Positions 1-16,070 of a stretch of 64,000 nucleotides of DNA are shown here, piece after piece. The notes beneath the pieces were generated by a model. That model was given only the letters and a program-made list of their open reading frames with translations, made no database searches and had not been told where the DNA came from. Position numbers and translations under genes: made by a program. How positions within the stretch are numbered: position 1 is the stretch's first letter; each line of letters begins with the position of its first letter. The stretch is taken from positions 335,158 through 399,157 of the forward strand of contig CBDAPE010000015.1 of NCBI GenBank assembly GCA_965198325.1, read 5' to 3'. Source of the DNA: Alphaproteobacteria bacterium. Lineage in GTDB: Bacteria; Pseudomonadota; Alphaproteobacteria; UBA828; JAPUJA01.

Positions 1-150
1 CTCGCCGTCGATGCCGACGCCGTTATCCGCGACGACGACCGAAGCGCCCCGGGAGGCCAGCGCGTGCGCGATCGCAAGGCCGATTCCCCGGCCAGCGCCC
101 GTGACGATTGCCACCCGGCCGGTAAGGCTCTGGTCGGTCCGATCTGTCAT
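1..150 (-). CDS. Short-chain dehydrogenase/reductase (SDR), N-terminal part. The gene runs off the left edge of the window.
   Basis: The reverse-complement of 1-150 reads MTDRTDQSLTGRVAIVTGAGRGIGLAIAHALASRGASVVVADNG. It contains the SDR TGxxxGIG Rossmann motif. The start overlaps the stop of the downstream gene by 4 bp. Confidence 0.7.
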   Translation of the reverse strand, partial: MTDRTDQSLTGRVAIVTGAGRGIGLAIAHALASRGASVVVADNGVGIDGE

Positions 151-1175
151 GCGGTCAACTCCAGGGCGGCCTTTTCCGCCGCCGTGTAAAACGCGTCCGC
201 ATGGCAATTCTCGCGCGCCACGCCCAGTTCGTAAAGCTGGACGAGACAGCTTTCCACCATCGGCGGGGGACCGGCGAGGTAGGCGCGTGCGCCCTCGCCG
301 GCGATGCGGTCTTCGCCAAGACCGTCCGCCAGCAGCCCGGTCCGCCGCTCCGTGGGCCCGACGGGCTCGGACAGCACGACCCGGTAGTCGAGATTTGCAT
401 GGGCCGACGCCAGGTCCTTGAAGTGATCCTCGAGATAAACGTCGCGCTCGTCGCGCACCCCGTGGTAGAGCCGGATCGGCGCTTTGAGCCCCGCGGCAAG
501 CGCCTCCTCGACAATCGCCTTGATGGGCGCAAGGCCCGAGCCCCCTGCGAGCGCGACCACGGGACCCGTGTGACGGGCCCGCCAGTAGGCGAAGCCGAAC
601 GGGCCTTCGGCGCGCACCGGATCGCCGAGGCTGAGGGTGTTGCGCACAAAGCCGCTGACCGCGCCGTTCTCGAGCGCCCGAACGTGGAAGTCGAGCGTCG
701 CCTCGTCGGGCCGGCTCGCCATGGAATAGTCGCGCACGGGCAGGCCGTCGAAGGTCAGTTCCGCATATTGCCCCGCGGTGAAGTGAAACGGCCCGCCCGC
801 GACCACGTCGAGGGTCACGCGCGTGATGTCGTGGGTCAGAGGGGTGAGCGCGGCGACCGTGCAGTCGAGCCGGCGGCGGGGATGAGCGACCAGCTCGTCG
901 TCTTCGAGGAACGCGATCTCGCAGTCGCTCCAGGGGACCGCACGGCAGGCCAGGATCAGGCCGGCGGCGGCTTGCTGCGCCGAGAGCGCGTGCTCCGAAT
1001 AGGGCGCCATCCGGACATCGCCCGAATGCAGGCGTGACTTACAGGCGCCGCAGTTGCCCGACTTGCAGCCGTGCGGATAGGGCCGCCCGAGGCCGAGCGC
1101 GGTTTCGAGGATCGTCGCGCCCATCTCGACAATGAACGGCTCGTTCCACTGCCGGACGGTTACCGTGTAGCTCAT
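147..1175 (-). CDS. Oxidoreductase with an N-terminal plant-type 2Fe-2S ferredoxin fused to an FNR-like FAD/NAD(P)-binding domain. Probable oxygenase reductase component.
   Basis: 342 aa. The N-terminus has CKSGNCGACK...C (Cx4Cx2C...C, 2Fe-2S). It is followed by an RDYSMAS (RxYS FAD-binding) motif and a GGSGLAP NAD-binding motif. Confidence 0.85.
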   Translation of the reverse strand: MSYTVTVRQWNEPFIVEMGATILETALGLGRPYPHGCKSGNCGACKSRLHSGDVRMAPYSEHALSAQQAAAGLILACRAVPWSDCEIAFLEDDELVAHPRRRLDCTVAALTPLTHDITRVTLDVVAGGPFHFTAGQYAELTFDGLPVRDYSMASRPDEATLDFHVRALENGAVSGFVRNTLSLGDPVRAEGPFGFAYWRARHTGPVVALAGGSGLAPIKAIVEEALAAGLKAPIRLYHGVRDERDVYLEDHFKDLASAHANLDYRVVLSEPVGPTERRTGLLADGLGEDRIAGEGARAYLAGPPPMVESCLVQLYELGVARENCHADAFYTAAEKAALELTA

Positions 1176-1308
1176 GCGTGGTCCGTCGTCGTTTCCAGGC
1201 AGGCATCTTGGGACCCGGGCGACCGGTTGGCAACGCGCAGACGCAGGCTATGAATTTTTCACCGGCTGGGCGAAGATTTACCGGTTCAAGATCAAGGGGG
1301 ACCGAATC

Positions 1309-1908
1309 ATGACCGACGAACGCGATCTCATAATCCCGCCTAAATCGGGGCGCGCCATCGTGGTGAAACGGGGCGAGACTCTCCGGGTGACCGACCTGGA
1401 AGGTCACCAGGTGGCCGACTTCGTGTGCTTCAACGAACACGACCATTCGGAATTTCTTTCCGCCGGGAAAACCCGGATGAACCCCTTCAAGGTCCGGATC
1501 TCGACTGGTGACAGACTCTATTCGAACCTGAGCACGGTCCTGTTTACGATCGGCAAGGACACGGTCGGCGTGCACGACCTGCTGTTCCCGCCGTGCAACC
1601 GCTGGCTCTACGAGAATGCGCTCGGCCAGCCGGGCGGCACCGGATGCCTCGAGAACCTGCGCGACGCGCTGGCGCCTTACGGGATCGAAGAATGGCAGGT
1701 GCCGGACCCGTTCAACCTGTTCATGAACACCCGCGTGGATGACGAAGACAATCTGGTCATCGAACTACCGAAATCCGGTCCGGGCGATTACATCGAACTC
1801 ACCGCCGAGATGGATTGTCTGGTCGGCGTGACCTCCTGCGCGGAGGAAAAGGCGAGCGACTGCAACGGCCGGCACGTGACCCCGATCGGGCTTGCGATCG
1901 TCCGCTGA
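1309..1908 (+). CDS. DUF1989-like (urea-carboxylase-associated family) protein
   Basis: 199 aa beginning MTDERDLIIPPKSGRAIVVKRGETLRVTDLEGHQVADFVCF. GGGGA lies about 8 nt upstream of the ATG. The longer ORF from 1174 has an Arg-rich leader and is probably not translated. The family call is from memory of the DUF1989 profile. Confidence 0.6.
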   Translation: MTDERDLIIPPKSGRAIVVKRGETLRVTDLEGHQVADFVCFNEHDHSEFLSAGKTRMNPFKVRISTGDRLYSNLSTVLFTIGKDTVGVHDLLFPPCNRWLYENALGQPGGTGCLENLRDALAPYGIEEWQVPDPFNLFMNTRVDDEDNLVIELPKSGPGDYIELTAEMDCLVGVTSCAEEKASDCNGRHVTPIGLAIVR

Positions 1909-2273
1909 TCCCGCGCGCGGCGCGCCGGCCAGGTGAAAGTCCAAGAATTGATGTCGTCATTGGATGATGGCTTGCCGAAGGGCATGGAGTAGTGGTCTCG
2001 GACGAGACTGGCTTCAAGGTCCACAGCGCCACCCTCTCGCGCGCGAGACCTTCACGAGACTTATGACGGCAGGATCGGGACAAGACGGAAGCAATATCAC
2101 GGCCCCATCGGGGGCATGATCGAAACGGGCTGTGCTCACGGTCGGGGGAAATTGGGGAGCGGGTCGATGGGCCAATCAATGCGACGTTCGAACCGGGCGC
2201 TACCCGATGAAGGCCGGTTTTGGTCTCGGCCGCGGGCTGTGCCAGCTTTTGGCGACAGGAGACGATTTATCGC

Positions 2274-2371
2274 GAAGAATTCAGCTAAGACGATTGTTCC
2301 AATGATTGCGGCCGTTATCGCCGCCTGAGGTTATTTTGGCGGACGAGGTTGGGGTAAATATAACGTGCGCC
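2274..2371. repeat. 98-bp repeat, copy A (~90% identical to 8309-8406). It carries a remnant of the Rieske-oxygenase start (GTG at 2365, reading MRHPKLTSRR then a stop).
   Basis: Direct alignment of 2274-2371 with 8309-8406 gives about 10 mismatches in 98 nt. Similarity ends exactly after gtgcgcc. Confidence 0.8.
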
Positions 2372-2450
2372 ATCCCAAGCTCACCTCCAGACGTTGACGC
2401 CCTCGCGCATCAGCCGTCCTACAACGGTACTGCGGCCGCCTGCGCAACAC

Positions 2451-2638
2451 CTTAGACGTAGTCCTTGGGGACAAGGGCTCGGCCGTCGAGCGCGAATGGT
2501 ACGATCACCTCATCGCGGCAGGGCTCGAGTCTTCCGGACATGGCACTCGCGAGGAGCCGCTTGCGTCCGGTCCTCTACCCAACAACCATGGTGGCGCAGC
2601 GAGTGTGATCGGAATCCTGGTCGGCAGGGCCGGACAGT
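2451..2638. repeat. 188-bp direct repeat, copy 1 (100% identical to 3002-3189)
   Basis: Identical 188-nt strings begin cttagacgtagtccttggggacaagg and end ggtcggcagggccggacagt. The next base differs (g vs a). Confidence 0.9.
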
Positions 2639-2639
2639 G

Positions 2640-2789
2640 CGAGAGAAGCTCATCAAGATCGGAGCGAAGATCGTGCGCCACGGGCGCTACGTCACGTTCC
2701 AGATGGCCGAGGTTGTCATTCCTCGTGACCTGTTCGCCGACATCCTGCGCCGTATCGACCGGCTCAGGCCGCCGCCAGCCCCGGCATGA
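2640..2789 (+). pseudogene. IS transposase C-terminal fragment (DDE transposase 3' end only). It starts directly at the end of the first 188-bp repeat.
   Basis: The translation REKLIKIGAKIVRHGRYVTFQMAEVVIPRDLFADILRRIDRLRPPPAPA then a stop is a characteristic transposase C-terminus. The preceding in-frame sequence is Arg-rich nonsense. No N-terminal or catalytic part is present. The IS family was not resolved. Confidence 0.6.
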
Positions 2790-3001
2790 GCGACGGCACC
2801 CCGTTCCTTCGCGTCGCCGCCGACAGGATCGGTGTGCCCGGATCGCCGGCAAAAATGCCATTCCGCGCCACCAACGCCGCCAATTGGTCCTCAATCATCC
2901 GGCTCGGCGCGAAGATGGCTGTCATTCGAAGGCAAATTGCACGTCGAGCGGTTTCGAGTCACACTCAACGGGCTGGGAGGGTTCCATATGGGGAATCCCG
3001 G

Positions 3002-3189
3002 CTTAGACGTAGTCCTTGGGGACAAGGGCTCGGCCGTCGAGCGCGAATGGTACGATCACCTCATCGCGGCAGGGCTCGAGTCTTCCGGACATGGCACTCG
3101 CGAGGAGCCGCTTGCGTCCGGTCCTCTACCCAACAACCATGGTGGCGCAGCGAGTGTGATCGGAATCCTGGTCGGCAGGGCCGGACAGT
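3002..3189. repeat. 188-bp direct repeat, copy 2
   Basis: See copy 1. Confidence 0.9.
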
Positions 3190-3500
3190 AGCTCAACTTA
3201 CAGTCGAAGCCGTCCAACGATTGGGGAGCAGCCCAATTCGGGGAGATAACAGTGAGAATTTCCGAACACATGGAACCCTACTTCCAGGGCTGAGTTACCA
3301 ACGATACCGCGGGCCACTTGAAGTCGGCCGCCAACAGAGTTTCTTTTTCGACGATCCCGACACCAGCAGAATTTCCAAGGCTGACTCCGAGGCGTATTTT
3401 GCCGCGCTCAATGTCGCGGTGGGCGAGAATCGCGCGGGCAAGACATTCAGCTATACTAACTGCCCCGAGGGCTCCCGTCGCAAAGCGAAAGGATCGCACC

Positions 3501-3872
3501 ATGACCGTGGCCGAACGCATCGAGGCCTATCTTCAGGCCTGGGTTACCGGCGATGTCTCAAGTCTGCTGGCGCAGTTTGCGGACAGTTTCTTATTCGACG
3601 ATCCCAATGTGGGCCGGATAACCCGACCTGGATTCAAAACCTACATGGAAGGTATCATGGCGAATGTCGAGCGTGTACGCGATGGCCGGAAATGCGAAAA
3701 TTTCGTGGAACTGAGCGAGATAGTCTCCAAGCACGAAGACGACGGCACAGCCACCCTCTGGTACTGGTGGGCCATCGCCGGCACGACGATCGAAGGATCC
3801 AGCCTCGTAAAGATCGGGCCCGAAGGCGTTCGCTCCGAGATCTACTGCTACTATGCCCGGACAGCGGAATGA
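3501..3872 (+). CDS. SnoaL-like/NTF2-fold small protein
   Basis: 123 aa beginning MTVAERIEAYLQAWVTGDVSSLLAQFADSFLFDDPNVG. The pattern is typical of SnoaL/NTF2-like proteins. AAAGGA lies 8 nt upstream of the ATG. Confidence 0.55.
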   Translation: MTVAERIEAYLQAWVTGDVSSLLAQFADSFLFDDPNVGRITRPGFKTYMEGIMANVERVRDGRKCENFVELSEIVSKHEDDGTATLWYWWAIAGTTIEGSSLVKIGPEGVRSEIYCYYARTAE

Positions 3873-4408
3873 CCGCGCGGCATTGTTCGGGGAAACAGAC
3901 ATCGTCAGGGTAAATTGGATGGAACCTCCTGACGAGTTTCATAACCTCCAGGGATGCAACACCGATTCCGCTATTTTGACATTTCGCTCGAAGTGACCCG
4001 CCTCGCGGAGATGATGTACGTCCACCACCCTAACCACTGCGATCTGTTCGAACAGAACCGCGCTGCCGCGCTCACGGAAAGGCGCCAACTCGCCGCGTGA
4101 GGGTCTTGATCGTTTCAAATCCCAAGGCTCAGCCCAATAATTTCTGTCCGCCCGTGGCCCGATCTATAACCTCTTCAACGCGCAACGCCATCTCGTTTTC
4201 CGCCACACGCTTCGAACCTTTTGCGATCACGCGATGGAGGAATGGAACGCTGTGACGGCGGCCGCGTGAATAGACCGGACTTCAAGTAAAAACCTGCCTC
4301 GCTTAAGTTAAGTTGACAGCTCCTATTTGACAACTCAGATACCTCAGCATTAAGGTCATAGAAAACGTTATAAATAATTTGCAGAGAGTGTCACAGGGAG
4401 ATTAAATC

Positions 4409-5476
4409 ATGACATCTGGCACATTTAAAATAGTCGCCGTGTCGGCCGCGCTGTTTGCTAGTACTGCGTTCAGTTACTTGGCCACTACGGCCACTACGGC
4501 ATTTGCAGGCGAGTTAAACCTACTCACGTGGGAAGGATACACTGACCAGAGCTTTATCGCCGCTTTCGAGGAGAGGACCGGATGTAAGATCACCGAGACC
4601 TTTATTGGGTCGCAGGAAGAGATCGCACCCAAGCTCTCGGGTGCCACGGGAGTCTACGACCTCGTCTCCCCCCAGATCGATTCGGCAAAAATCTTAGCTC
4701 AGATGGGTGTGGTTGAGCCTATTGACGTTCCGCGCCTCAAGCATTGGGGGGAATTCTACGGGTCGTTCATTGATCATCCCGGTCTCATCATCGACGGCGA
4801 GACGTGGGGTATGCCGTTTACCTGGGGTTCGGTCCCCCTGATGTATCGCACGGATAAGATCGACGATCCTCCGTCCTCGTTCTCGGTTCTCTGGGATCCG
4901 AGGTATGCCGGCAAGACCGCAGTGCAGGACGACAAGTCCAATATTTACATTGCTGCCCGTCTGCTCTTTGGGAGGGACTTTGACGCCTACAAGATGACCG
5001 ATGAGCAGCTTGAAACCGTGAAAGAAAAGTTAATCGAACAGAAAAAATACCTCCGCAAGTATTGGGCATCGGCGGGTGAACTTATAAATCTCTATGCGAA
5101 CGGTGAAGTCTGGATTTCTACCACTTGGGGCGGCTACCAAGTGGCTATACTCCAAGAACAGGGTATCCCAGTCGTTGAAGTCCTTCCCGAGGAGAGGGCC
5201 GAAGGATGGCAGGATGTCTGGATGATCGTAAAAGACACCGCCAATAGGGATTGTGCCTACGAGTGGCTCAACTTTGCGAGCGGATCCGAGGGCCAATGCG
5301 GAGTCGCAAGTGTCACGGGATATTGGGGAGCAAACCCGGTGGCGCTAGAGAGCTGCATGACGCCGGACATATTCCGTCCCTCCGAAGATTATACCGATAA
5401 CCTCTCGTTCCCAACTCAGCCGGAACCGCTTGAAGGCTATGTTAACACTTGGAATGCCGTAAAGACCGCCCCTTGA
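4409..5476 (+). CDS. Periplasmic substrate-binding protein, ABC family 1 (spermidine/putrescine PotD/PotF-like). It is an orphan: no permease or ATPase lies nearby.
   Basis: 355 aa with an N-terminal signal peptide (MTSGTFKIVAVSAALFASTAFSYLA...AFA). The codon usage is noticeably AT-richer than the flanks. An AT-rich promoter-like region with two TTGACA boxes lies at about 4310-4340. Confidence 0.7.
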   Translation: MTSGTFKIVAVSAALFASTAFSYLATTATTAFAGELNLLTWEGYTDQSFIAAFEERTGCKITETFIGSQEEIAPKLSGATGVYDLVSPQIDSAKILAQMGVVEPIDVPRLKHWGEFYGSFIDHPGLIIDGETWGMPFTWGSVPLMYRTDKIDDPPSSFSVLWDPRYAGKTAVQDDKSNIYIAARLLFGRDFDAYKMTDEQLETVKEKLIEQKKYLRKYWASAGELINLYANGEVWISTTWGGYQVAILQEQGIPVVEVLPEERAEGWQDVWMIVKDTANRDCAYEWLNFASGSEGQCGVASVTGYWGANPVALESCMTPDIFRPSEDYTDNLSFPTQPEPLEGYVNTWNAVKTAP

Positions 5477-5520
5477 TGGGCGATGACGGCGTCAAGTGAA
5501 CTAAACCACACTGGAGGAGT

Positions 5521-5547
5521 CCCGCCCCTTTGATGTCGAGGGGCGGG
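5521..5547 (+). terminator. Putative intrinsic terminator after the binding-protein gene
   Basis: cccgcccc-tttgatgtcga-ggggcggg forms an 8-bp GC stem, followed by atttcgtg. Confidence 0.45.
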
Positions 5548-5702
5548 ATTTCGTGCGAACTCCAAGCCGATCCTGGAAACGATCTCTTTGAGGCCGAAAT
5601 GGTTATCAAGAATAAGAGTGAATCCTGCATGCCTTGGCCAATTTTCTAATAGCCTTGAAGTCACTTCGAGAATGCACAACCAGAGACCCGTGAGAGGAAC
5701 AC

Positions 5703-8297
5703 GTGCCGTCGATTTATAAGATACAGCCCGAAGATCGGATTTACGCTGAAGAATTTCGTCGAAATCCGATTGGCCACCACAGCCCTGGGTTAAATCGCAT
5801 TCTCACCTTGTTTAGAGGTGAACCGGTCGAGAAGAAAGATGTTCTCGTATGCGTACAACCCCACCGAGAGTGGTGGCTGGGACAGTTGTCCGGGCACCGA
5901 GGAAGGCCAATCAGGATTATTCGAGATAAGTGTTTTAGAAATCTCTGGGACGCGGAGTGGGAGATTTTCAAAAGGCGGTGGAAAAAGCATACGGGCGAAG
6001 ACCTTGAAGGCCAGGATAAGCAGCGCGAAGCCCCCCACTCCTATCGGGACGACGGCATCAGGATTACAGGTTATAGCGACCGCATCGGTGTGAGGCCGGG
6101 CGAAACCATCCACTTCAAGGTCTCATGCGACCGCGTCAAGAGCTACCGCTCCGACATTGTCCGTCTCGTCTGCGGCGACACTGATCCTAATGGGCCGGGC
6201 TTCAAGGAGAAGCTCGTGAAGACTGGTGTGAGCGGGCGCTACAAAGGTCGAAAACAGGCGATTCGCGTGGGATCCCACACGATCGTGCCCACTGCATCCG
6301 CACTCGAAGCGCTGGAGAGCTTTTCCCTGCAAGCGATGATTTGGCCGACTACTCCCAGGAAAAGTATTCAAGGGATCATTTCAAAGTGGTCCGCAGGGTC
6401 AAAAAGTGGATTTGCACTAATCATCGACGAGAAGGGCGAGGCCGCCCTAATGGTCGGGGACGGAGCCGGCCGAGTGCACATCGTCAGCACGGGACGACGC
6501 CTGCTCGATCGGCAATGGTATTTCGTGGGGGCAAGTTTTGATGCCCGGGCGCAGCGAGTCCGTGTATTTCAGGAGCCGCTTGTGCAGTTTCCGGGACATG
6601 ATGACCCTGCTGTAAAAAGCCAAACGCTCGAGCTAGCTCGGGTCGGAGCAAATGACTGTCCGTTAATCATGGCCGGAATACAGCAGCGATCTTCGAAGGC
6701 TCGGATAATCGTGGGAAACCACTATAACGGCAAGATTGACAGCCCACGTCTTGCCAACCGAGCCCTTTCACCAGCGGAGGTGGAGACCCTTAAGCATGGC
6801 GTTCCCGCCGCTCTCGAAGATGCGGTCGTTGCCGCTTGGGACTTCTCGCGCGACATTGGCTCCGAGCGCATTGCAGACCTTTCGCCCAACCAGCTCCAGG
6901 GCACGATGGTCAACCTGCCCACGCGCGCGGTAACGGGCTGGAATTGGACGGGGCAGCATATGCGCTGGAGCGAGGCCCCCGAGCAATGGGGCGCGATTCA
7001 CTTTCATGACGACGATCTTTACGACGCGGGCTGGGAGACGGATTTTGAGTGGAAAGTGCCCGGGCGTATGAAGAGCGGTCTCTACGCTACGCGCCTTCGC
7101 TCCGGACGATCCGAGGAATACGTTCCTTTTGCCGTCGGGCCGAGGCCAGGGCACGAGTCGAAGGTAGCACTCCTTCTGCCAACCGCCAGTTACATGGCCT
7201 ACGCCAACGAGCACTCAGGAACGGACTCGGACACGATTGAACGGATGAACGGCGTTGTTTGCGTCCTGTACCCGCAAGACCTGTTTCTAAACAAGCATCG
7301 GGAATACGGTGCCTCGCTCTACGACACGCACACAGACGGGAGTGGTGTCGTCTACTCTTCGCGCCTGCGTCCGATCCTGAACATGCGGCCCAAATACGAA
7401 TCCAACATGGGCGGAGCGAAAGTCCACCAGTTCAACGCGGATACCCACATCATCGACTGGCTCGAGGCGAACGACATCGAATACGACGTCATTACGGACG
7501 AGGAGCTCGACCGACGTGGCATGGCGTTGCTGTCCCCTTACCGGGTTGTGCTCACCGGGACCCATCCGGAGTACTGGTCGCCTAAGATGCAGGACGGGAT
7601 GGTCGCCTACGAGCGCCGCGGGGGACGACTGATGTATCTGGGCGGCAACGGGTTCTACTGGAAGATCGCCTTTCACCCGGAATTGCCCGGCGTGATCGAA
7701 GTCCGCCGCAACGAGACCGGCATGCGCGCCTGGCCGTCGGCGCCCGGTGACTACTACCACGCCTTCGACGGCGAATACGGTGGCCTCTGGCTGAACCAGG
7801 GCGGCGGGAGAACACAACAGTCTATGGTCGGAACCGCCTTTTGCGCCCAGGGGTTCGATCTTTCCTCCTACTACCGGCGCAAGCCGGACAGTCTTGACCA
7901 GAAGGTGAAATTCATTTTCGAGGGGATCGAAGACGACGAGTTGATCGGCGATTTCGGGTTGCTTGGAGGGGGCGCGGCCGGCTGGGAGATCGACTGTATT
8001 TCCTATGATCAAGGGACGCCGTCAAACACATTCGTTTTGGCGAGTTCTGAGGACCATACGGACGTTTATCAGCTTACTGCCGAAGAGATGCTCGAAGGTT
8101 ACGCGGGCACCGGAGGACAAGAAAATCCTCGCGTTCGTTCAGATATGGTGTTTTTCGAGACTGCAGATGGCGGAGCCGTGTTCTCAGTCAGCTCGATTGC
8201 CTGGGCGGCGAGCTTGTCGCACAACAATTATAAGAACAATGTTTCGCGGATAACGAAAAACGTTTTGACTCGCTTCCTCGATCCAAGAGTCTTCTAA
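5703..8297 (+). CDS. Large (864 aa) protein resembling the N,N-dimethylformamidase large (beta) subunit family (GATase1-like C-terminal domain)
   Basis: GTG start with GAGAGGA 5 nt upstream. The C-terminal half has LLLPTASYMAYANE, RVVLTGTHPEYWSPKMQDGMVAYERRGGRLMYLGGNGFYWK and AFDGEYGGLWLNQGGG. I recall these as characteristic of DMFase large-subunit/GATase1-like proteins. No small-subunit gene is adjacent. The family call is from memory. Confidence 0.45.
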   Translation: MPSIYKIQPEDRIYAEEFRRNPIGHHSPGLNRILTLFRGEPVEKKDVLVCVQPHREWWLGQLSGHRGRPIRIIRDKCFRNLWDAEWEIFKRRWKKHTGEDLEGQDKQREAPHSYRDDGIRITGYSDRIGVRPGETIHFKVSCDRVKSYRSDIVRLVCGDTDPNGPGFKEKLVKTGVSGRYKGRKQAIRVGSHTIVPTASALEALESFSLQAMIWPTTPRKSIQGIISKWSAGSKSGFALIIDEKGEAALMVGDGAGRVHIVSTGRRLLDRQWYFVGASFDARAQRVRVFQEPLVQFPGHDDPAVKSQTLELARVGANDCPLIMAGIQQRSSKARIIVGNHYNGKIDSPRLANRALSPAEVETLKHGVPAALEDAVVAAWDFSRDIGSERIADLSPNQLQGTMVNLPTRAVTGWNWTGQHMRWSEAPEQWGAIHFHDDDLYDAGWETDFEWKVPGRMKSGLYATRLRSGRSEEYVPFAVGPRPGHESKVALLLPTASYMAYANEHSGTDSDTIERMNGVVCVLYPQDLFLNKHREYGASLYDTHTDGSGVVYSSRLRPILNMRPKYESNMGGAKVHQFNADTHIIDWLEANDIEYDVITDEELDRRGMALLSPYRVVLTGTHPEYWSPKMQDGMVAYERRGGRLMYLGGNGFYWKIAFHPELPGVIEVRRNETGMRAWPSAPGDYYHAFDGEYGGLWLNQGGGRTQQSMVGTAFCAQGFDLSSYYRRKPDSLDQKVKFIFEGIEDDELIGDFGLLGGGAAGWEIDCISYDQGTPSNTFVLASSEDHTDVYQLTAEEMLEGYAGTGGQENPRVRSDMVFFETADGGAVFSVSSIAWAASLSHNNYKNNVSRITKNVLTRFLDPRVF

Positions 8298-8308
8298 CTG
8301 TTTATTGG

Positions 8309-8406
8309 GAAGAACTCAGCTAAGATGATTGTTCCCATGATTGCAGCCACTATCGCCACCTGAGGTTATTTTGGCGGACGAGGTTGAGGTAAATTTAACG
8401 TGCGCC
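8309..8406. repeat. 98-bp repeat, copy B. It contains the leader and the GTG start (8400) of the intact Rieske oxygenase gene.
   Basis: See copy A. Confidence 0.8.
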
Positions 8407-9572
8407 TGGAAGATTTTATCGATCGCGAACGCTTGGCCGACCTTGACCGGCCGATAGGCGAAACGGCCGGTCTCCCGGGAAGCGCGTACAGCGAGGGATT
8501 TTACAAACTCGAACAAAGGGAATTTTTTCCCCGCACATGGTGTGCCATCGCCGTCGGATCGCAAGTTCCCAGACCGGGAGATGTGATACCCATCGACCTC
8601 GCGGGCTGGCCGCTCCTCCTTGTTCGCAATCAGTCGGGTCAAATCAAGGTTTTCCACAACATGTGTCAACACCGGGGCATGCGCGTCGTGACGAAGTCCG
8701 CATGTCGCCAGGAGCTTCGGTGCCCGTGGCATGCCTGGACCTACGATCTGGATGGCCGTCTCAAAACGCGGCGCGATTTCGCAGGTTGGAACGCGCCGGA
8801 TGCCGGAGACATGAATGCGGAGCTACCCGGACTTAAAGAAGTGCGGTCGGATCAGTGGCACGACTACGTAATGGTCAATATCGACGGCAAGGCGCCGCCG
8901 CTTCGAGATCATATCAAGCCTCTCGATGACTTCCTCCAGGACTACGATCTTGATGCTTTCGAGTACGCGAACACGCTGGAGCATTCTTACGAAGGCAACT
9001 GGAAGCTGGCGATGGAGGGTGGGCTCGAGGAATACCATCTACGTTCGGCGCATCCCCGCTTTGCCAAGGGCGTCATTTCGCAAAATCTTGAGTTCAGCCT
9101 CGATGCGGCCTGCCATTCGGGTTACCTGTTCTCTCGGAACTTTGGAGAAACCGAAAGGGCGGATCGAGTGGGCGAGCGCGGCATGCCGGCTCGTCCTGGT
9201 ACCCCACGCGACGTTGAGAACTATTACCTGATCAACCTATTTCCTGTGGGCCTGATGCTCCTTGAGGACGATCACGCAATCTTCATCTTGTTTACCCCCG
9301 ATGGTTGGAACCGCACGCGCGTCGTCAACTACCACTATTATTTTGGTGCCGCGGCTGTTGATCCGGCTTATGCCGAGGTCCGCAAGGAGTTTGAAGACGT
9401 TTGGACAGAGGTGATGTACCAGGACGCGGATTTCGTGAAATACGTCCATGAGAATGCGCAGCTGCGTGATGCGGTCGGCATCAATTCGCACTTCGCGCCT
9501 TATTGGGAAAGGCCGGTCCAGCATTTTCAACGACTCGTCATAGATACGATGAAAAATAGCTCGGACGGATGA
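8400..9572 (+). CDS. Rieske [2Fe-2S] non-haem iron oxygenase alpha subunit (GbcA/Stc2/CntA-like N-demethylating monooxygenase family)
   Basis: 390 aa. The Rieske motif is CQHRG...x17...CPWHAW (CxH...CxxH). A downstream catalytic domain is present. GAGG lies upstream of the GTG. Confidence 0.85.
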   Translation: MRLEDFIDRERLADLDRPIGETAGLPGSAYSEGFYKLEQREFFPRTWCAIAVGSQVPRPGDVIPIDLAGWPLLLVRNQSGQIKVFHNMCQHRGMRVVTKSACRQELRCPWHAWTYDLDGRLKTRRDFAGWNAPDAGDMNAELPGLKEVRSDQWHDYVMVNIDGKAPPLRDHIKPLDDFLQDYDLDAFEYANTLEHSYEGNWKLAMEGGLEEYHLRSAHPRFAKGVISQNLEFSLDAACHSGYLFSRNFGETERADRVGERGMPARPGTPRDVENYYLINLFPVGLMLLEDDHAIFILFTPDGWNRTRVVNYHYYFGAAAVDPAYAEVRKEFEDVWTEVMYQDADFVKYVHENAQLRDAVGINSHFAPYWERPVQHFQRLVIDTMKNSSDG

Positions 9573-9896
9573 GGGCGGGCGGCCAAGCTGGTTGAAGCCG
9601 GCTGAATTGGGATTGCCGGGCGAGTCAATTCCCAGCGCTCGCGGACGCCCGATCTGAATCTGATTCCAAGTCTTTAAAATATTTGCTTTGGGCCAGAAGC
9701 GGCCCCCGCTGGCGGAGAATTCGAACGGCCTGCAATGTGTCCGCGGACGGACTCTCGGATGGTGGCTCCAGACCCTAAATGAGAACGGCGGCGCAATAAT
9801 CCCCCCCTGAAGCGGCCGGTTGATCCGGCTGTGGCGGACCAAAATGGGACCGTCTATAGCCTTCTGTCAGGGTTGCTCTGACTGGAAGGCGGGGGG

Positions 9897-10253
9897 ATGT
9901 ATCGGGTGGATTTGTACGCGCGGGTTCGGCGGGCGTGTCGTGTCGAGGGAATGAGCACCCGCGAGGCCTCGCGGGTGTTCGGGCTGGACCGCAAGACGGT
10001 CCGCAAGATGCTGTCGTTCTCGGTGCCGCCGGGGTCTCGCCGCGGCAAGCCGCCACGGCGGCCGAAGCGGGGTCCGTTCACGGGGATCATCGATCGGATT
10101 CTGGAAGACGATCGGACCAGCCACCACAAGCAACGGCCCACGGCGAAGCGGATCTTCGACCGTCTCCGGGACGAGTACGGCTTTACGGGCGGCTACACCA
10201 TCGTGAAGGACTATGTCCGTGAGCGGCGGCTTCGGTCGCGCGAGATGTTCGTC
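9897..10253 (+). pseudogene. istA: IS21-family istA, 5' fragment
   Basis: The translation is MYRVDLYARVRRACRVEGMSTREASRVFGLDRKTVRKMLS...GYTIVKDYVRERRLRSREMFV. This is the HTH N-terminus of IstA. It is cut off after REMFV. Confidence 0.75.
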
Positions 10254-11432
10254 GCTGTCCAGATATCTTGTGTAAATGAGTGCCGTGGGTCCACCTACGA
10301 TGAGGACTATCAGACCTGAACTTCGACGAACTTCTGGCCGATTACGAGAAGCCGGATGACCTGCTGGGCGAAGACGGGCTTCGGTGCTCGAGCGGGCGCT
10401 TGGCGATGAGCGATCACCGGCTACGAGAAGGGTGACCCGGCGGTCGCGGCACGTAACAGCGGCTACTCGGACAAGACGGTGCTGAGCGAGGATGGCGAGA
10501 TCGATATCGCCGTGCCGCGCGACCGCACCGGCACGTTCGACCCGCTGATCGTGCCCAAGGGCGAACGCCGTCTCGAGGGCTTCGACGATCGCATCGTGTC
10601 GCTGTATGCCCGCGGCATGACGGTGCGCGAGATACGTGGCCATCTGCAGGAGCTTTACGGGGTCGCGGTTTCGCCGGACCTGATCAGCCGGGTCACCGAC
10701 GCGGTACTCGAGGAGGTCCGCGAATGGCAGAACCGACCGCTCGATGCGGTCTATCCGGTGGTGTTCTTTGACGCGCTGCGGGTCAAGATCCGCGACGAAG
10801 GCCTGGTGCGCAACAAAGCAGTCTACGTTGCACTGGCCCTCACCGCTGAAGGCGAGAAGGAGGTTCTCGGGCTGTGGATCGAGCAGACCGAAGGCGCCAA
10901 GTTCTGGCTCAAGGTGATGAACGACCTCAAGACCCGCGGCGTCGCTGACATCCTGATCGCCGTGGTCGACGGCCTCAAGGGCTTCCCCGAGGCGATAACA
11001 ACGGTGTTCCCCGAGACCACGGTGCAGACCTGCATCGTGCATCTGATCCGCAGTTCGCTGGCGTTCGTGTCGTGGAAGGACCGAAAGAGGATCATGCCCG
11101 ATATCAAGGCGATCTACCGCGCCGAAACCGCCGAGACCGCGGCGGCCAAGCTCGACGAGTTCGAGGCCAAATGGGGCGAGCGCTATCCGGCGATCGCGCC
11201 CAGCTGGCGCCGCGCCTCGCCGATGTTCGCGCGCCGGGATCCGCGATCTACACCACCAATGGAGCCTGCACCGGCGCAAGATCAAGACACGCGGTAGCAA
11301 CGACCGCGGTCAAGCGGTTCCTGGCGATCCGCAATGCCTTGGAAACGGCCTATTGAATGGACCGCCGCAATGGGGCGCGATCTGTTCGAGGATCCTTTCC
11401 GGCCTCAGCGCGCTCGAAACAATGTCGCCCCG
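10254..11432 (+). pseudogene. IS256-family transposase, degenerate (multiple frameshifts), inserted in istA
   Basis: Frame C reads FDELLADYEKPDDLLGEDGL, then there is a frame break. The central part is TGTFDPLIVPKGERR...DDRIVSLYARGMTVREIRGHLQELYGV...VYVALALTAEGEKEVLGLWIEQTEGAKFWLKVMNDLKTRGV...VVDGLKGFPEAITTVFPETTVQTCIVHLIR. The tail IYTTN...MPWKRPIEWTAAMGRDLFEDPFRP is in other frames. Confidence 0.8.
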
Positions 11433-11636
11433 CCACTTACACAGACAATCGGACACACCCATTCCCCCGGCCCCGCCCAGGCGGACTTCGGCGAGGCGAT
11501 GGCGGTGATCGGCTCCGAGCGGCTTACCGGCGCTCTCCTCGACCGCCGCACCCACCACGTCAACATCCTCGAGATGAATGGCGAGAGCTACAGGCTCAAC
11601 CAGAGCCGCAGGCGTCAAACCCCGACGGCGAACTGA
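11433..11636 (+). pseudogene. IS21 remnant: an istA fragment fused in frame to the istB C-terminus (internal deletion)
   Basis: PLTQTIGHTHSPGPAQADFGEAMAVIG (IstA segment that normally follows REMFV) runs directly into SERLTGALLDRRTHHVNILEMNGESYRLNQSRRRQ (IstB C-terminus). Confidence 0.65.
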
Positions 11637-11829
11637 ACCGACCACCCAACCCACGCTTGACCCCATGGGCCCACAGGTCCCTCCCGCGCGCGCCGCCGCG
11701 TCGGCCTGTTGAGGGCACGCCGCGTCGCACGCGGGGCCCGCCCATGGACTACGGGGACAAGCCCGCAGCCGCCAAGCGGTCCCTTCTTACACCGCCACGG
11801 TCGTCCCTTTTTGCTCCGCCATTGACACC

Positions 11830-13791
11830 CTAAAGCACTGCGGCGACCTTGAGCGCGTCGAGGGTCGCCTCTTCGACGGTCCGGGGCGTGGCGCAATCGC
11901 CGATCGCGATCACCTCGCCGTCATAATCGGATAACTCTTCGAGGAGCCCGGCATAGCGCTCGTGACCGAGCGCCAGAACGATGGTTTCGATGTCTTCGAC
12001 GACAATTGCCTCGCCGGTCATGATGTGCTGCAGATAGACCGAGTCGTCGTCGACCCCGAACAGCCGCGCATACGGGATCACCTCGACGCCGAGGCGATGC
12101 ATGGTTCCCGCCCCCATGTCTCGGATATAGGGCTGAAGCGATTGCCCGGCGGCGTAGCCGGCCACGGCGAGGCGCACCCGGCAGCCGTCGCGGGCGAGCT
12201 TCTCGGCCAAGCCGAGCCCGATCCAGTCGCAGCGCCAGTCGGCGACCAGCACCGAGGCCCCGACGTTGACCTCGTTCTTCAGCACCTGCCAGGCATCGAC
12301 CACATGCTCGCCCTCGAGACCATCGAGCGCGGGCCGGCGTGGGCCGGCACCGGTCGCGACGATCACCGCGTCGGGCGCTTCGCGGGCGATCAACTCGGGC
12401 GTGGCTGGCGTGTTCTTGACGACCGCGGCCCCGGCCAACTCCATCTCGCGGCTGAAATTGGTCACGATGCCGCCGAACTCCGCGCGGCCGGGGAGCGCCT
12501 GTGCAAGCAGGACCTGACCGCCAAGCTGGCCGCTCGCTTCGTAAAGCGTGACGGCGTGACCCCGCTCGGCGGCAACGATCGCGGCCTTCATGCCCGCGGG
12601 GCCACCACCGGCGACCAACACCTTGCGCACGGGGTCGGCTGGTTTGAGCGAGCCGTATTCGAGTTCGCGGCCGGTCTCGGGGTACTGGATACAGGAGATC
12701 GAATAACCGGTCATCATATGGCCTATGCAGGCCTGGTTGCAGGCGATGCAGGCACGAATATCGTCGACGCGCCCCGCTCGGGCCTTGTTGACCATCTCGG
12801 GATCGGAAATCTGGGCGCGGGTCATGCCGCACATGTCGGCCTGACCCGAGGCCAGAATGGTCTCGGCGATGTGGGGCTGGTTGATCCGCCCGGCGACGAA
12901 GACCGGCCGGGAAACCCGTTCGCGCACGGCGGCCGCGTAGGGCGCGACATAGCCCGTCTCCATGGCCATCGGCGGAACGATATGGGTCGCCGCGCCGAGA
13001 TTGACTGACGAGCCGGCGATGACATTGAAATAGTCGATCCCACCATCGCCGTCGAGCGCGACGCAGGCAGCCGCGGCTTCGTCGAGGCTCAGCATCTCCG
13101 CGTCGGTGCCGTCGCCGGTGATGCGCAGGCCGACGATCAATCCATCGTCGGTCTTGGACCGGACGTCAGTCACGACCTCGCGCAGAAACCGCAGGCGGTT
13201 ATCAACCGAGCCCCCATATTCGTCTTCGCGCAAGTTCACCCGCGGGCTCAGGAACTGGGCCGGCAGATAACCATGGCTGCCGACGATCTCGACACCGTCG
13301 AGACCCGCCTCGCGCATGCGCGCCGCGGCGTGGCCATAACCCGCCACAATTTCGCCGATCAGGTCGCGCGACATGGGCTCGGGTACGATGTGGAAGCGCT
13401 CGTTCGGCACCGCGGAGGGGGCATAGGCATGAGCCTGGGAGCCATCGGTCGAGCTGAAGATTTCGCGCCCCGGATGGAAGATCTGACCGAATATCCTGCA
13501 GCCGTGGGAATGAACCGTTTCGGCCAGCTCGGCGTAGCCCGGGATGCAGCTGTCGTCGTAGGCGATGATGGAATTGAGGTTGAATACGCCGGTCGGATGC
13601 ACCGCGCCGATCTCGACGATAATCAGACCGGCCCCACCCTTCGCGCGCGCCTCGTGATACGCCCTGAGCGCATCGTTGGGAGCGGTGCCTTCGACGAGCA
13701 GGGTTTCATGCCCCGTCGAAAAAATGCGGTTCCGGATCTCGAGTCCCCGGATGGTAAGCGGACTGAACAGGGTCGGAAACATTTGGCTCAT
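11830..13791 (-). CDS. Old-yellow-enzyme-family FMN/Fe-S flavoprotein fused to an FAD/NAD(P)-binding domain (dimethylglycine/N-methylproline demethylase StcD/DgcA-like, TMADH/2,4-dienoyl-CoA reductase family)
   Basis: 653 aa from MSQMFPTLFSPLTIRGLEIRNRIF (GAGGAAGAG RBS). An OYE TIM-barrel N-domain is followed by a 4Fe-4S motif CIACNQACIGH...C. The C-terminal Rossmann motif is KVLVAGGGPAGMKAAIVAAERGHAVTLYE. Confidence 0.85.
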   Translation of the reverse strand: MSQMFPTLFSPLTIRGLEIRNRIFSTGHETLLVEGTAPNDALRAYHEARAKGGAGLIIVEIGAVHPTGVFNLNSIIAYDDSCIPGYAELAETVHSHGCRIFGQIFHPGREIFSSTDGSQAHAYAPSAVPNERFHIVPEPMSRDLIGEIVAGYGHAAARMREAGLDGVEIVGSHGYLPAQFLSPRVNLREDEYGGSVDNRLRFLREVVTDVRSKTDDGLIVGLRITGDGTDAEMLSLDEAAAACVALDGDGGIDYFNVIAGSSVNLGAATHIVPPMAMETGYVAPYAAAVRERVSRPVFVAGRINQPHIAETILASGQADMCGMTRAQISDPEMVNKARAGRVDDIRACIACNQACIGHMMTGYSISCIQYPETGRELEYGSLKPADPVRKVLVAGGGPAGMKAAIVAAERGHAVTLYEASGQLGGQVLLAQALPGRAEFGGIVTNFSREMELAGAAVVKNTPATPELIAREAPDAVIVATGAGPRRPALDGLEGEHVVDAWQVLKNEVNVGASVLVADWRCDWIGLGLAEKLARDGCRVRLAVAGYAAGQSLQPYIRDMGAGTMHRLGVEVIPYARLFGVDDDSVYLQHIMTGEAIVVEDIETIVLALGHERYAGLLEELSDYDGEVIAIGDCATPRTVEEATLDALKVAAVL

Positions 13792-13975
13792 GGCGTCTCT
13801 TCCTCGGCTGCGCCCTAACCAACCCCGAATTGCCGTGCCAATCAAGGGCACAGCGCATCGGGCGGGCTCACGGCCTTGTGAGGGCAGTTGATTTGTCTGG
13901 CGTGGTCAAGCGGCCTATCTCTGTCGGCGTGTGACGGCGATCAACGCGGCGCCCGCGATTTAGATGCAAAAGACC

Positions 13976-14324: not shown

Positions 14325-14759
14325 ATGGTCCGCAGATTCCTTCTCACCACCGCCCTGGCGGTATTCATTCCTGGCCTCGCGCCGGCGTTGACCAGCGCCC
14401 CGATCGCCGTCGAGATCGTCGGCGTGCGCAGCGCGTCCAGCGTCATCGAACTCGCCGTCTACGACAGCGCCGAGAGCTTCCTCGAAGACGGCCAAAGCGT
14501 CGCCACGGCGACCTTCGACGCGAGCGACGGCCGGGTGGCCGGCGAGGTCCTCGGACTTCCCGCGGGCCGCTACGCCATCGCGGTCTTCCACGACGAGAAC
14601 GGCAACGACGAGTTCGATACGAACTTCATCGGCCTGCCCACCGAGGGCTACGGCTTCTCGAACGGCGCGACCGTATTCCTGGGCCCGCCCGCGTTCGACG
14701 ACGCTGCCTTCGAGACCGGCGCCGAAGGCGCCCGACTGACCGTAAACCTGTCCTACTAG
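14325..14759 (+). CDS. DUF2141-like secreted protein
   Basis: The signal peptide is MVRRFLLTTALAVFIPGLAPALTSAP. The mature part is IAVEIVGVRSASSVIELAVYDS...AGRYAIAVFHDENGNDEFDTNFIGLPTEGYGFSN, which is typical of DUF2141. Confidence 0.6.
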   Translation: MVRRFLLTTALAVFIPGLAPALTSAPIAVEIVGVRSASSVIELAVYDSAESFLEDGQSVATATFDASDGRVAGEVLGLPAGRYAIAVFHDENGNDEFDTNFIGLPTEGYGFSNGATVFLGPPAFDDAAFETGAEGARLTVNLSY

Positions 14760-14796
14760 GTAGATCCGACCGTCTGAACGGCGGACGCCGACCGCT

Positions 14797-15870
14797 TTAG
14801 GCTGCGGCGAAGTCGGCCAGGCGGATCGGCGCACGGCGCGCGCCCCAAGTGCCGGCGGGGCCGTCGAAGCGCCCCGCAAGCGGGGTCGCGCAGTGGGTAC
14901 AGCGGCCGTCGTCGGTGAGGTTCCAGGCGCCGAGCCGGTACCAATCGCGCTCGATCAGGAGACCGCCGCAACCGTGGCAATAGGTGGAGCCGCCGTCCGA
15001 ATCATGGACGTTGCCCGTATAGGCGTAGCGCACGCCGTTGCGCATGGCGATACCCCTGGCCCGGGTCAGCGTCGCAGGCGGGGTTGCCGGCTGGTCGCGC
15101 ATCTTCCAGTCCGGGTGAAAGGCGGTGAAGTGCATCGGCACGTCGGGTCCGAGCTCGTCGACGACCCAGCGGGTCATAGCATCGAGTTCCTCGTCGGAAT
15201 CGTTCTCGCCCGGGATCAACAGGGTCGTGAGCTCGAACCAGACATCGGTCTCATGCTTGAGCCAGACCAGGGTATCGAGCACCGGCGCGAGCTCGGCACC
15301 ACAGATCTTGCGGTAGAAAACGTCGGTGAAGGCCTTCAGGTCTATGTTCGCGGCGTCCATGTCGCGGTAGAACTCGACGCGAGGCTCCTTGCAGATATAG
15401 CCCGCAGTGACCGCAACCGTGCCGATCTCCGCCTCGCGGGCGGCGCGCGCGATGTCGAGCGCATATTCGAAGAAGATGACCGGGTCGTTGTAGGTGAACG
15501 CGATCGAGCGGCAGCCGGTCGCCTTCGCGGCACGCACGATCACTTGCGGCGACGCGGCGTCGGCAAGGGTGTCGATCTCGCGCGACTTGCTGATGTCCCA
15601 GTTCTGGCAGAATTTGCAGGTCAGGTTGCAACCCGCCGTGCCGAACGACAGGACGGGGGATCCCGGCAGGTAGTGGTTGAGCGGCTTCTTCTCGATTGGG
15701 TCGATGCAGTATCCGGACGAGCGGCCGTAGCTCGTCATCACCAGACCGTCGCCGGCCCGTGCCCGGATGAAGCACAGGCCCCGCTGACCTTCGTGAAGCT
15801 TGCAGTAGCGCGGGCAAATATCGCACTGGATACGGCCGTCTTCGAGCGCATGCCAATAGCGCCCCGGCAC
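14797..15870 (-). CDS. amrS: AmmeMemoRadiSam system radical SAM enzyme (AmrS)
   Basis: Contains GRYWHALEDGRIQCDICPRYCKLHEGQRGLC and a CNLTCKFCQN radical-SAM cluster motif (CxxxCxxC). A C-terminal CHGCGG...CTHC motif is present. The start chosen is the GTG at 15870, giving VPGRYW. The annotated ORF extends to 16125 but would overlap the divergent neighbour by 55 bp. Confidence 0.8.
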   Translation of the reverse strand: MPGRYWHALEDGRIQCDICPRYCKLHEGQRGLCFIRARAGDGLVMTSYGRSSGYCIDPIEKKPLNHYLPGSPVLSFGTAGCNLTCKFCQNWDISKSREIDTLADAASPQVIVRAAKATGCRSIAFTYNDPVIFFEYALDIARAAREAEIGTVAVTAGYICKEPRVEFYRDMDAANIDLKAFTDVFYRKICGAELAPVLDTLVWLKHETDVWFELTTLLIPGENDSDEELDAMTRWVVDELGPDVPMHFTAFHPDWKMRDQPATPPATLTRARGIAMRNGVRYAYTGNVHDSDGGSTYCHGCGGLLIERDWYRLGAWNLTDDGRCTHCATPLAGRFDGPAGTWGARRAPIRLADFAAA

Positions 15871-16070
15871 GATCGACGGATCGCGCGCAGCCTCTTCGGC
15901 TGTAACCGCGTTATCGATGACACCCTCCTCGCCGGACTTGATGCTGCGCCCGACCGTACTAAGGTAAGCAAGGAGCTTGCCGGTTTCAATCGGCAGGCGG
16001 CGGCCTCGCTTTACGGCTCCGCCGGTGCGCGCTAGGCTTCCGGCCCGGGCGAGCGCCCAAGGAGGAGACG

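Follow-up and report, generated by a model that had tools for sequence, protein, structure and literature searches.

The 64,000-nucleotide (nt) stretch of DNA analyzed in this study (contig CBDAPE010000015.1 of an alphaproteobacterial assembly; referred to below as the window) contains, at positions 5703..8297 of the forward (+) strand, an unbroken open reading frame (ORF) of 864 codons plus a stop codon, which begins with GTG directly preceded by GAGAGGAA. An earlier note, made from the sequence alone, had described the product of this uninterrupted frame as a protein resembling the large subunit of N,N-dimethylformamidase (DMFase) and lacking a small subunit. The reading of the ORF, the public protein P0001 (identical to its product and also recorded in a separate ENA assembly) and an AlphaFold2 (AF2) model revealed that the whole ORF encodes a single-chain alpha-beta amidohydrolase of the DMFase family. 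It consists of a small (alpha) subunit domain (residues 1–102; 5703..6008), a linker of approx. 15 residues (103–117; 6009..6053) and a complete large (beta) subunit (118–864; 6054..8294), all encoded on the + strand. The family assignment made in the note therefore stood, and the subunit thought to be missing was found at residues 1–102, fused in frame. Few enzymes share the 2-Tyr-1-carboxylate mononuclear iron site of DMFase, an enzyme that cannot do without its small subunit, although what this subunit does is poorly understood.

The large subunit was delimited by alignment to a solved structure, by domain mapping and by a Foldseek comparison. The note had suggested that the protein be checked by hidden Markov model search and structure prediction, and both placed it in the DMFase family. 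Pfam DMFA2_C was matched by residues 407–844 (E 1.2e-97; cut-off 27 bits), in agreement with the DMFase beta-subunit motifs noticed in the C-terminal half, and Laminin_G_3 by residues 196–360. Among the PDB sequences, residues 4–755 of the 775-residue large subunit of the Paracoccus DMFase (6lvb_A) were aligned with residues 119–860 without large gaps (E 2.5e-169; 41% identity). The domain limits published for DMFase (PMC7686228) were carried over to the ORF, which gave an Ig-like (immunoglobulin-like) domain I (approx. 119–187 and 440–484), a LamG-like domain II (approx. 188–439) and a catalytic domain III (approx. 485–864). It had been claimed that approx. 300 N-terminal amino acids (aa) could not be assigned and that the protein was much longer than typical members of the family. 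The alignment to 6lvb_A includes the Ig-like and LamG-like domains, so that only approx. 117 residues are extra, and the excess over the norm of 745–775 aa is only approx. 100–115 residues, all of which is explained by the fusion.

The full-length AF2 model (predicted local distance difference test, pLDDT, 90.8; predicted template modelling score, pTM, 0.90), in which the linker is the sole weak part, superposed on 6lvb_A with a Foldseek TMt of 0.94 and a root mean square deviation (rmsd) of 2.1 Å. N-acetyl-(R)-beta-phenylalanine acylase (8HUY, 8I5A), a large-subunit homologue with a bulky N-acetyl amino acid substrate, gave a nearly as good sequence match in PDB (8huy, residues 119–859; E 4e-161) and a poorer superposition (TMt 0.90; rmsd 3.9 Å); the large chain is the only one listed in its PDB entries. 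The ORF protein was assigned to both DMFase subunit families by all of the sequence and fold tests applied. The only NCBIfam match, to TafC on the LamG region, was weak and was judged spurious.

The Laminin_G_3 match, together with a distant structural similarity to pentraxins and carbohydrate-binding modules seen for the LamG domain only, could be taken to mean that the protein is a non-catalytic, lectin-like or carbohydrate-active one. We consider this extremely improbable, since LamG forms domain II in every enzyme of the DMFase family and the catalytic domain is intact, as are all of the catalytic residues described below.

The N-terminal part required a different approach. Neither a single-sequence phmmer search of PDB nor a local Pfam scan gave any match for residues 1–124, and we therefore built a profile (A1) from 11 fused N-termini, which contained 23 invariant columns. 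The precomputed Pfam annotation, which exists for exactly the ORF protein, and the contig record both name PF26354 (DMF_alpha, the DMFase small subunit). This assignment was examined in three independent ways: comparison of the profile with PDB, comparison of a model of the N-terminal domain with PDB, and synteny with relatives in which the two genes are split.

Profile A1 matched the solved small subunit 6lvb_B (E 0.001; profile positions 7–93, chain residues 37–124), the next match having an E value of 0.45. The predicted secondary structure of residues 1–102 comprises helices at 9–20, 28–38 and 81–97 and strands at 46–52, 56–61 and 70–78. When the AlphaFold model of the isolated domain (pLDDT 84.6) was compared with PDB, the only matches below E 0.5 were the DMFase small-subunit chains 6lvv_B, 6lvb_B and 6lvd_B (E 5e-5 to 1.6e-3; TMq 0.64–0.71). 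The best of them was 6lvv_B (E 5e-5, TMq 0.71, rmsd 1.8 Å over 92 columns); no further match had an E value better than 0.58.

The third line of evidence came from P0005 (locus L003; 67% identical) and P0012 (L005; 62% identical), the closest relatives outside the fused clade. In both loci the gene order is alpha followed by beta, and a separate DMF_alpha gene of 102 aa (L003) or 101 aa (L005), co-oriented with the beta gene, lies 28 bp or 20 bp upstream of it, respectively. The alpha domain of the window ORF occupies the same place, but is fused. The stand-alone alpha proteins are 66% (L003) and 65% (L005) identical to residues 1–102 and end, at the stop codon, with ...RWKQHTGEDIA and ...RWKKHTGETIR (first and second of the pair), right where the linker of the window protein begins. 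In the latter, the chain runs on as ...RRWKKHTGEDLE-GQDKQREAPHSYRDDG-IRITGYSDR. The linker EGQDKQREAPHSYRD thus stands where the two-gene relatives retain a stop codon, a spacer and a separate start codon. Its limits, set by the end points of the stand-alone alpha proteins, by a drop of the model pLDDT to 58–69 in the blocks spanning residues 101–120 and by a start-codon scan, enclose a segment in which a new product could not be initiated: no in-frame ATG, GTG or TTG was found between residues 63 and 129, and a separate beta product therefore cannot begin at the homologous position. The L003 locus differs from the window in its further neighbours, which are a 2-oxoglutarate (2OG) oxygenase, a glyoxalase, an Oxidored_FMN/Pyr_redox_2 flavoprotein and a Liv-type ATP-binding cassette (ABC) system.

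The DMF_alpha match, the profile match, the fold of the N-terminal domain and the synteny with split genes demonstrate that residues 1–102 are the DMFase small subunit and that the protein is an in-frame alpha-beta fusion in which every domain is accounted for. The note was right that the window holds no separate small-subunit gene: when the alpha and beta parts were used in tblastn searches of the whole window, they matched only the ORF at 5703–8297, and no further copy of either was found. It was mistaken in concluding that the protein does without this subunit. Its version, a large-subunit-only enzyme that carries an unrelated N-terminal extension and is active alone, could draw on the silence of residues 1–124 in the single-sequence search and the local Pfam scan, and on the deposited acylase structures with their single large chain. 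It is contradicted by all four of the results listed above, and we regard it as very improbable.

To our surveys of public proteins the fused form appeared as a minority architecture. A homologue search retained 2810 proteins with E <= 1e-10 among 8000 candidates scored. Within the best 120 of these, 11 (including the query) have 864–882 aa and carry PF26354, and the rest have 734–769 aa and lack it; the DMF_alpha plus beta combination was thus already visible in the precomputed Pfam annotation. A scan of contigs from one genome per species with the DMF_alpha profile yielded 219 relatives. In 79 of the best 80 of these loci the domain lies in a stand-alone frame of approx. 97–109 codons, counted from the start of the match, and in one (L010) it is fused. 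Finally, 568 of 1.84 billion cluster representatives carry DMF_alpha at E <= 0.001. Nearly all of the best 150 have 85–130 aa, and the full-length fusions among them are P0231 (854 aa) and P0248 (872 aa), P0192 being a fragment of a fused protein. We found no description of a natural alpha-beta fusion in the literature searched.

These data also bear on the possibility that the fusion is an assembly or sequencing artefact, produced by a lost stop codon or a frameshift in an organism that really has two genes. From the alpha stop codon to the conserved ITGYSDR motif there are 61 nt in L003, and the equivalent region of the window has 60 nt, so that one indel and one substitution would interconvert the two forms. 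However, 10 other proteins (52–77% identity) from different, independent samples are built in the same way, with linkers of similar length, and L010 is fused too, which makes an artefact very unlikely. The further fused representatives P0231 and P0248, the identical protein of the separate ENA assembly and the lack of a start codon for a separate beta product likewise speak against it.

A neighbor-joining tree of the large-subunit part, which is rough and indicative only, placed the fused proteins at at least four separate positions among unfused ones. This suggests repeated fusion or fission, apparently with several independent fusions. Starting from an L003-like layout, the loss of the stop codon and a change of one base would suffice to create the fusion: a two-gene ancestor would have lost the alpha stop codon, with the frame adjusted across the short spacer. 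Such an event would fix a 1:1 stoichiometry of the subunits and would allow one gene to move a working enzyme between genomes.

The active site of the window protein spans positions 7200..7988 (+). Its residues were mapped onto the Paracoccus DMFase, in which Y399, Y440 and E521 bind iron and mutation of H519, N547 or E657 abolishes activity (PMC7686228). The iron ligands correspond to Y500 (7200–7202), Y540 (7320–7322) and E623 (7569–7571), so the Tyr/Tyr/Glu set that the note had singled out for checking is retained. The catalytic residues correspond to H621 (7563–7565; H519 in Paracoccus), N649 (7647–7649; N547) and E762 (7986–7988; E657), all on the + strand. Of eight positions compared with Paracoccus, seven carry the same residue, namely these six functional ones and the non-essential S395. 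Among 120 homologues the six functional residues vary little or not at all, and each of the three iron ligands is invariant. The eighth position, Phe693, is contributed by the neighbouring large subunit and has been proposed to limit the Paracoccus enzyme to small formamides (PMC7686228).

By analogy with the Paracoccus enzyme, Glu762 would activate an Fe(III)-bound water molecule, which would attack the carbonyl of a small N-substituted amide; Asn649 would stabilize the oxyanion, and the amide would be split into an amine and a carboxylic acid. Without its partner the Paracoccus large subunit has no activity and is less stable, and the substrate entrance is built from both subunits (PMC7686228). 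We therefore expect the window protein to need its fused alpha domain for activity; this domain would pack on the catalytic domain, stabilize it and form part of the entrance. The ORF protein lacks a signal peptide, and its substrate must therefore be imported.

Compared with the enzyme of Paracoccus sp. DMF (DmfA1/DmfA2; 6LVB, 6LVV), the window protein shares the three-domain large subunit, the small-subunit fold, the 2-Tyr-1-Glu iron ligands and the catalytic His, Asn and Glu. It differs in having one polypeptide in place of two (132 aa and 762 aa), in its shorter alpha domain and in the Phe693 gate.

As the best explanation of the whole, including the mechanism and the origin of the gene cassette described below, we consider it probable that the ORF product is a single cytoplasmic polypeptide holding both subunits of a DMFase-type amidohydrolase. 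Several results weigh against this explanation. Besides the lack of any single-sequence match for residues 1–124, the sequence similarity between the alpha domain and the solved small subunit would by itself be marginal (E 0.001; 31% identity over 74 residues). Only residues 37–124 of the 132-aa Paracoccus subunit were matched, and the long N-terminal helix with which that subunit wedges between the large subunits (PMC7686228) is absent from the domain. Phe693 is aligned with Glu798, in a loop that varies within the family, and the specificity may therefore differ. In addition, AceAB, a two-subunit homologue, hydrolyses acetamiprid and has no activity on N,N-dimethylformamide (DMF) or its analogues (PMC11573777).

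An alternative is that the protein is a true DMFase, with DMF and N-methylformamide as physiological substrates, encoded by an island that serves as a cassette for degradation of xenobiotic solvents. The nearest solved structure is indeed the Paracoccus DMFase (rmsd 2.1 Å versus 3.9 Å for beta-phenylalanine acylase), all of the catalytic residues are kept, the setting is low in GC and rich in insertion sequences (ISs), like that of the known plasmid-borne dmfA1A2 genes, and amine or one-carbon (C1) genes lie near some relatives. Nevertheless, the identity to DMFase, of which a single structure has been characterized, is just 41%, the gating Phe693 is not kept, and AceAB (the acetamiprid amidase of Pigmentiphaga sp. 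D-2), a close family member, acts on a different amide. AceAB, compared here by description only, is an alpha plus beta amidase homologous to DMFase, whose subunits are separate (PMC11573777). DMFase in the strict sense (EC 3.5.1.56) is set apart from the window protein by two features, the Phe693 gate and the two-polypeptide alpha2beta2 build, in place of which we found a single ORF with no internal start.

The distribution of the family points in the same direction. DMF_alpha loci are spread over metagenome-assembled genomes (MAGs) of Binatia, Alphaproteobacteria, Arenicellales and others, recovered from lakes (including deep Lake Baikal), oceans and soils. DMF is hardly to be expected as a substrate in such places, and the distribution speaks for amides of natural origin. 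Furthermore, no dimethylamine or methylamine utilization genes were seen in the cassette, and its binding protein is of the polyamine type. We regard a true DMFase as unlikely. At 41% identity, activity on DMF may or may not occur, and our best guess for the substrate of the fused amidohydrolase is a small N-alkyl amide, DMF being only one candidate.

The genomic context of the relatives did not reveal the substrate, since the analysis of conserved neighbours at 80 loci disclosed no single shared pathway. The neighbours are heterogeneous; a class-III aminotransferase, encoded at 10 loci, and a peptidase S58, at 8 loci, are the most frequent, and various ABC transport proteins come next. Some relatives are found close to amine or C1 genes: that of L003 adjoins a 725-aa Oxidored_FMN/Pyr_redox_2 flavoprotein, of a kind that includes amine dehydrogenases, that of Halalkalicoccus adjoins a primary-amine oxidase, and that of Rhizobium plasmid pMK-2 lies near fghA, gfa and the gene of a formaldehyde-sensitive repressor. 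These genes fit the release of an amine, but do not identify the amide.

Among loci L006–L085, the class-III aminotransferase and the peptidase S58 (DmpA/BapA-type) recur upstream of split alpha and beta genes (e.g. in the Arenicellales MAG loci L068, 4616–5998, and L079, 3519–4604). This arrangement hints at amides of amino compounds or beta-amino acids as substrates in that branch.

The DMF_alpha searches also revealed this domain in other contexts. On plasmid pMK-2 (Rhizobium sp. NIBRBAC000502774, CP041205.1; L087, 3597–5255) it forms the C-terminus of a 552-aa LivM-type ABC permease (BPD_transp_2), the gene of which lies directly upstream of a DMFase-beta-family gene. The annotation and the match position indicate the same layout on pMDW2 (Aminobacter sp. 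MDW-2, NZ_CP060199.1; L088, 4600–6255), where a 551-aa permease is followed by two beta genes. A fusion of this kind would tether the amidase to its importer. In the metagenomic representative P0268 (424 aa), an Abhydrolase_3 esterase domain (89–294) is followed by a C-terminal DMF_alpha (335–422). Plasmid 2 of the archaeon Halalkalicoccus jeotgali B3 (NC_014299.1; L086, 4761–5303) encodes a stand-alone DMF_alpha of 180 aa, in frame with beta and separated from it by one stop codon; it adjoins the primary-amine oxidase, and its annotation as "inner-membrane translocator" looks misleading.

Three plasmid matches obtained as a single piece with tblastn (H24, H31 and H33) were considered as further alpha-beta fusions and were rejected, because alpha is merely in the frame of beta: the DNA showed the alpha of Halalkalicoccus to be stand-alone and that of pMK-2 to be fused to the permease, and the pMDW2 annotation gives the same permease layout.

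The variety of partners (beta, a LivM-type permease and an alpha/beta-hydrolase) suggests that DMF_alpha acts as a portable adaptor; as a docking module, it might recruit the iron amidase to different proteins. This is perhaps the more interesting lead, and it offers a testable idea on the role of the small subunit. The natural single-chain form, for its part, shows that the two subunits work as an obligate 1:1 unit and settles which of their ends are near one another; it also provides a one-gene construct of an unusual iron amidase for biochemistry, bioremediation and amide biocatalysis. In annotation, such fused proteins should not be read as large subunits without a partner.

As stated in the note, the amidase gene lies between genes for a periplasmic binding protein and an oxygenase, and no transporter genes are found beside the former. 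The gene upstream (4409..5476, +) encodes a secreted, PotD/PotF/YdcS-type solute-binding protein (355 aa; SBP_bac_8, E 6e-30), which matched polyamine-type binding proteins in PDB and NCBIfam and has a hydrophobic, signal-peptide-like N-terminus. The genes scanned within the first 16 kb of the window included none for an ABC permease or ATPase. The gene downstream (8400..9572, +) encodes the alpha subunit of a Rieske non-haem iron oxygenase (390 aa; Rieske and Ring_hydroxyl_A domains). The note had called it a demethylase-type enzyme; it is a Rieske oxygenase, but is only weakly nearest to the GbcA/CntA/Stc2 group, with 122.7 bits against the GbcA model, i.e. below its cut-off of 670, and with PDB matches confined to residues 31–225. 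In none of the other DMFase-family loci examined was this Rieske gene found beside the amidase.

The left border of this segment is marked by the C-terminal fragment (last 48 residues) of an IS1380-type (DDE_Tnp_1_4) transposase (2394..2789, +; PF13701, E 3.1e-9, profile positions 387–434 of 435). At the right border there are an ORF with weak helix-turn-helix (HTH) matches, maybe a truncated transposase (9897..10319, +), and a fragment of an IS256-family transposase (10479..11297, +; Transposase_mut, E 2.6e-94, profile positions 72–315 of 379). The latter has IS256 matches on plasmids and was the sole match when positions 1–12000 of the window were compared with plasmids by megablast. A SnoaL_2-like ORF (3501..3872, +; 123 aa; E 2.8e-5, below the gathering score), which is also called as a gene in the public assembly, lies at the left of the low-GC segment, and its membership of the cassette is uncertain. 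A 375-aa ORF at 2786–3913 (+), which the public assembly does not call, was rejected as a gene, having an Arg-rich, nonsense-like translation without family matches.

The GC content at third codon positions (GC3) is 0.53–0.69 in the cassette genes versus 0.78–0.85 in the flanking genes. In locus L002, a 77%-identical fused protein (P0003) adjoins a 59%-identical copy of the binding protein, i.e. the binding protein travels with the fused amidase. This pair is situated between two genes for 398-aa Transposase_mut (IS256-type) proteins, at 6798–7994 (+) and 14566–15762 (-), among IS3-, IS21- and IS1380-type genes, an arrangement that looks like a composite transposon. The low GC3, the IS fragments on both sides and the L002 pair between transposase genes make the horizontal acquisition of the low-GC segment (binding protein, fused amidase and Rieske oxygenase), which the note had envisaged, well supported.

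The accompanying proposal of amide or methylamine catabolism is a plausible hypothesis; the Rieske partner is unique to this locus, and enzymes inactive on DMF occur in the family. One functional pathway joining all three cassette genes is not well supported by our data. The cassette might represent an undescribed mobile route for N-methylated or N-alkylated amides, with PotD-like capture, Rieske N-dealkylation, cleavage by the amidase and DMF_alpha as a portable docking module, although we consider this improbable. In such a route the divergent, GbcA/CntA-like Rieske oxygenase would remove an N-alkyl group (e.g. by converting DMF to N-methylformamide) before the amidase cleaves the amide. To our knowledge, no enzyme has been assigned to the oxidative demethylation of DMF to N-methylformamide.

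Two sets of repeats were detected in this region. A 106-nt direct repeat (90% identical) is present at positions 2266–2371 and 8301–8406; the first copy precedes the IS debris, and the second begins just past the end of the amidase gene and reaches the GTG with which the Rieske gene starts. Its interpretation as the mark of a second copy of the Rieske gene was dismissed, as tblastn detected no Rieske remnant upstream. The repeat could stem from duplication of a promoter or leader, or could be the scar of a recombination event, bracketing the segment with the binding-protein and amidase genes. An exact 188-nt direct duplication (2451–2638 and 3002–3189, 551 nt apart), located beside or within the IS1380-type remnant, has either arisen locally in the genome or been created by the assembly. 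Scanning for promoters and terminators yielded no more matches than expected by chance.

With Rfam, only a tRNA was found in the window. ARAGORN indicated a 97-nt tRNA-Cys at positions 44792–44888, which the Rfam tRNA model did not report at its gathering score; the call is perhaps false, or the tRNA an unusual one.

To the right of the cassette, the window contains an AmmeMemoRadiSam system (14797–17510), composed of a radical S-adenosylmethionine (SAM) enzyme (14797–16125, -; 643 bits) and a fused B and A protein (16071–17510). Next to it lies the gene of a FadH/OYE-type (old yellow enzyme) flavoprotein (11830–13851), the best model for which is a mycofactocin-associated OYE, with a score below the cut-off of that model. 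The assignment of this oxidoreductase to a mycofactocin system was rejected, since the adjacent radical-SAM genes are those of the AmmeMemoRadiSam system.

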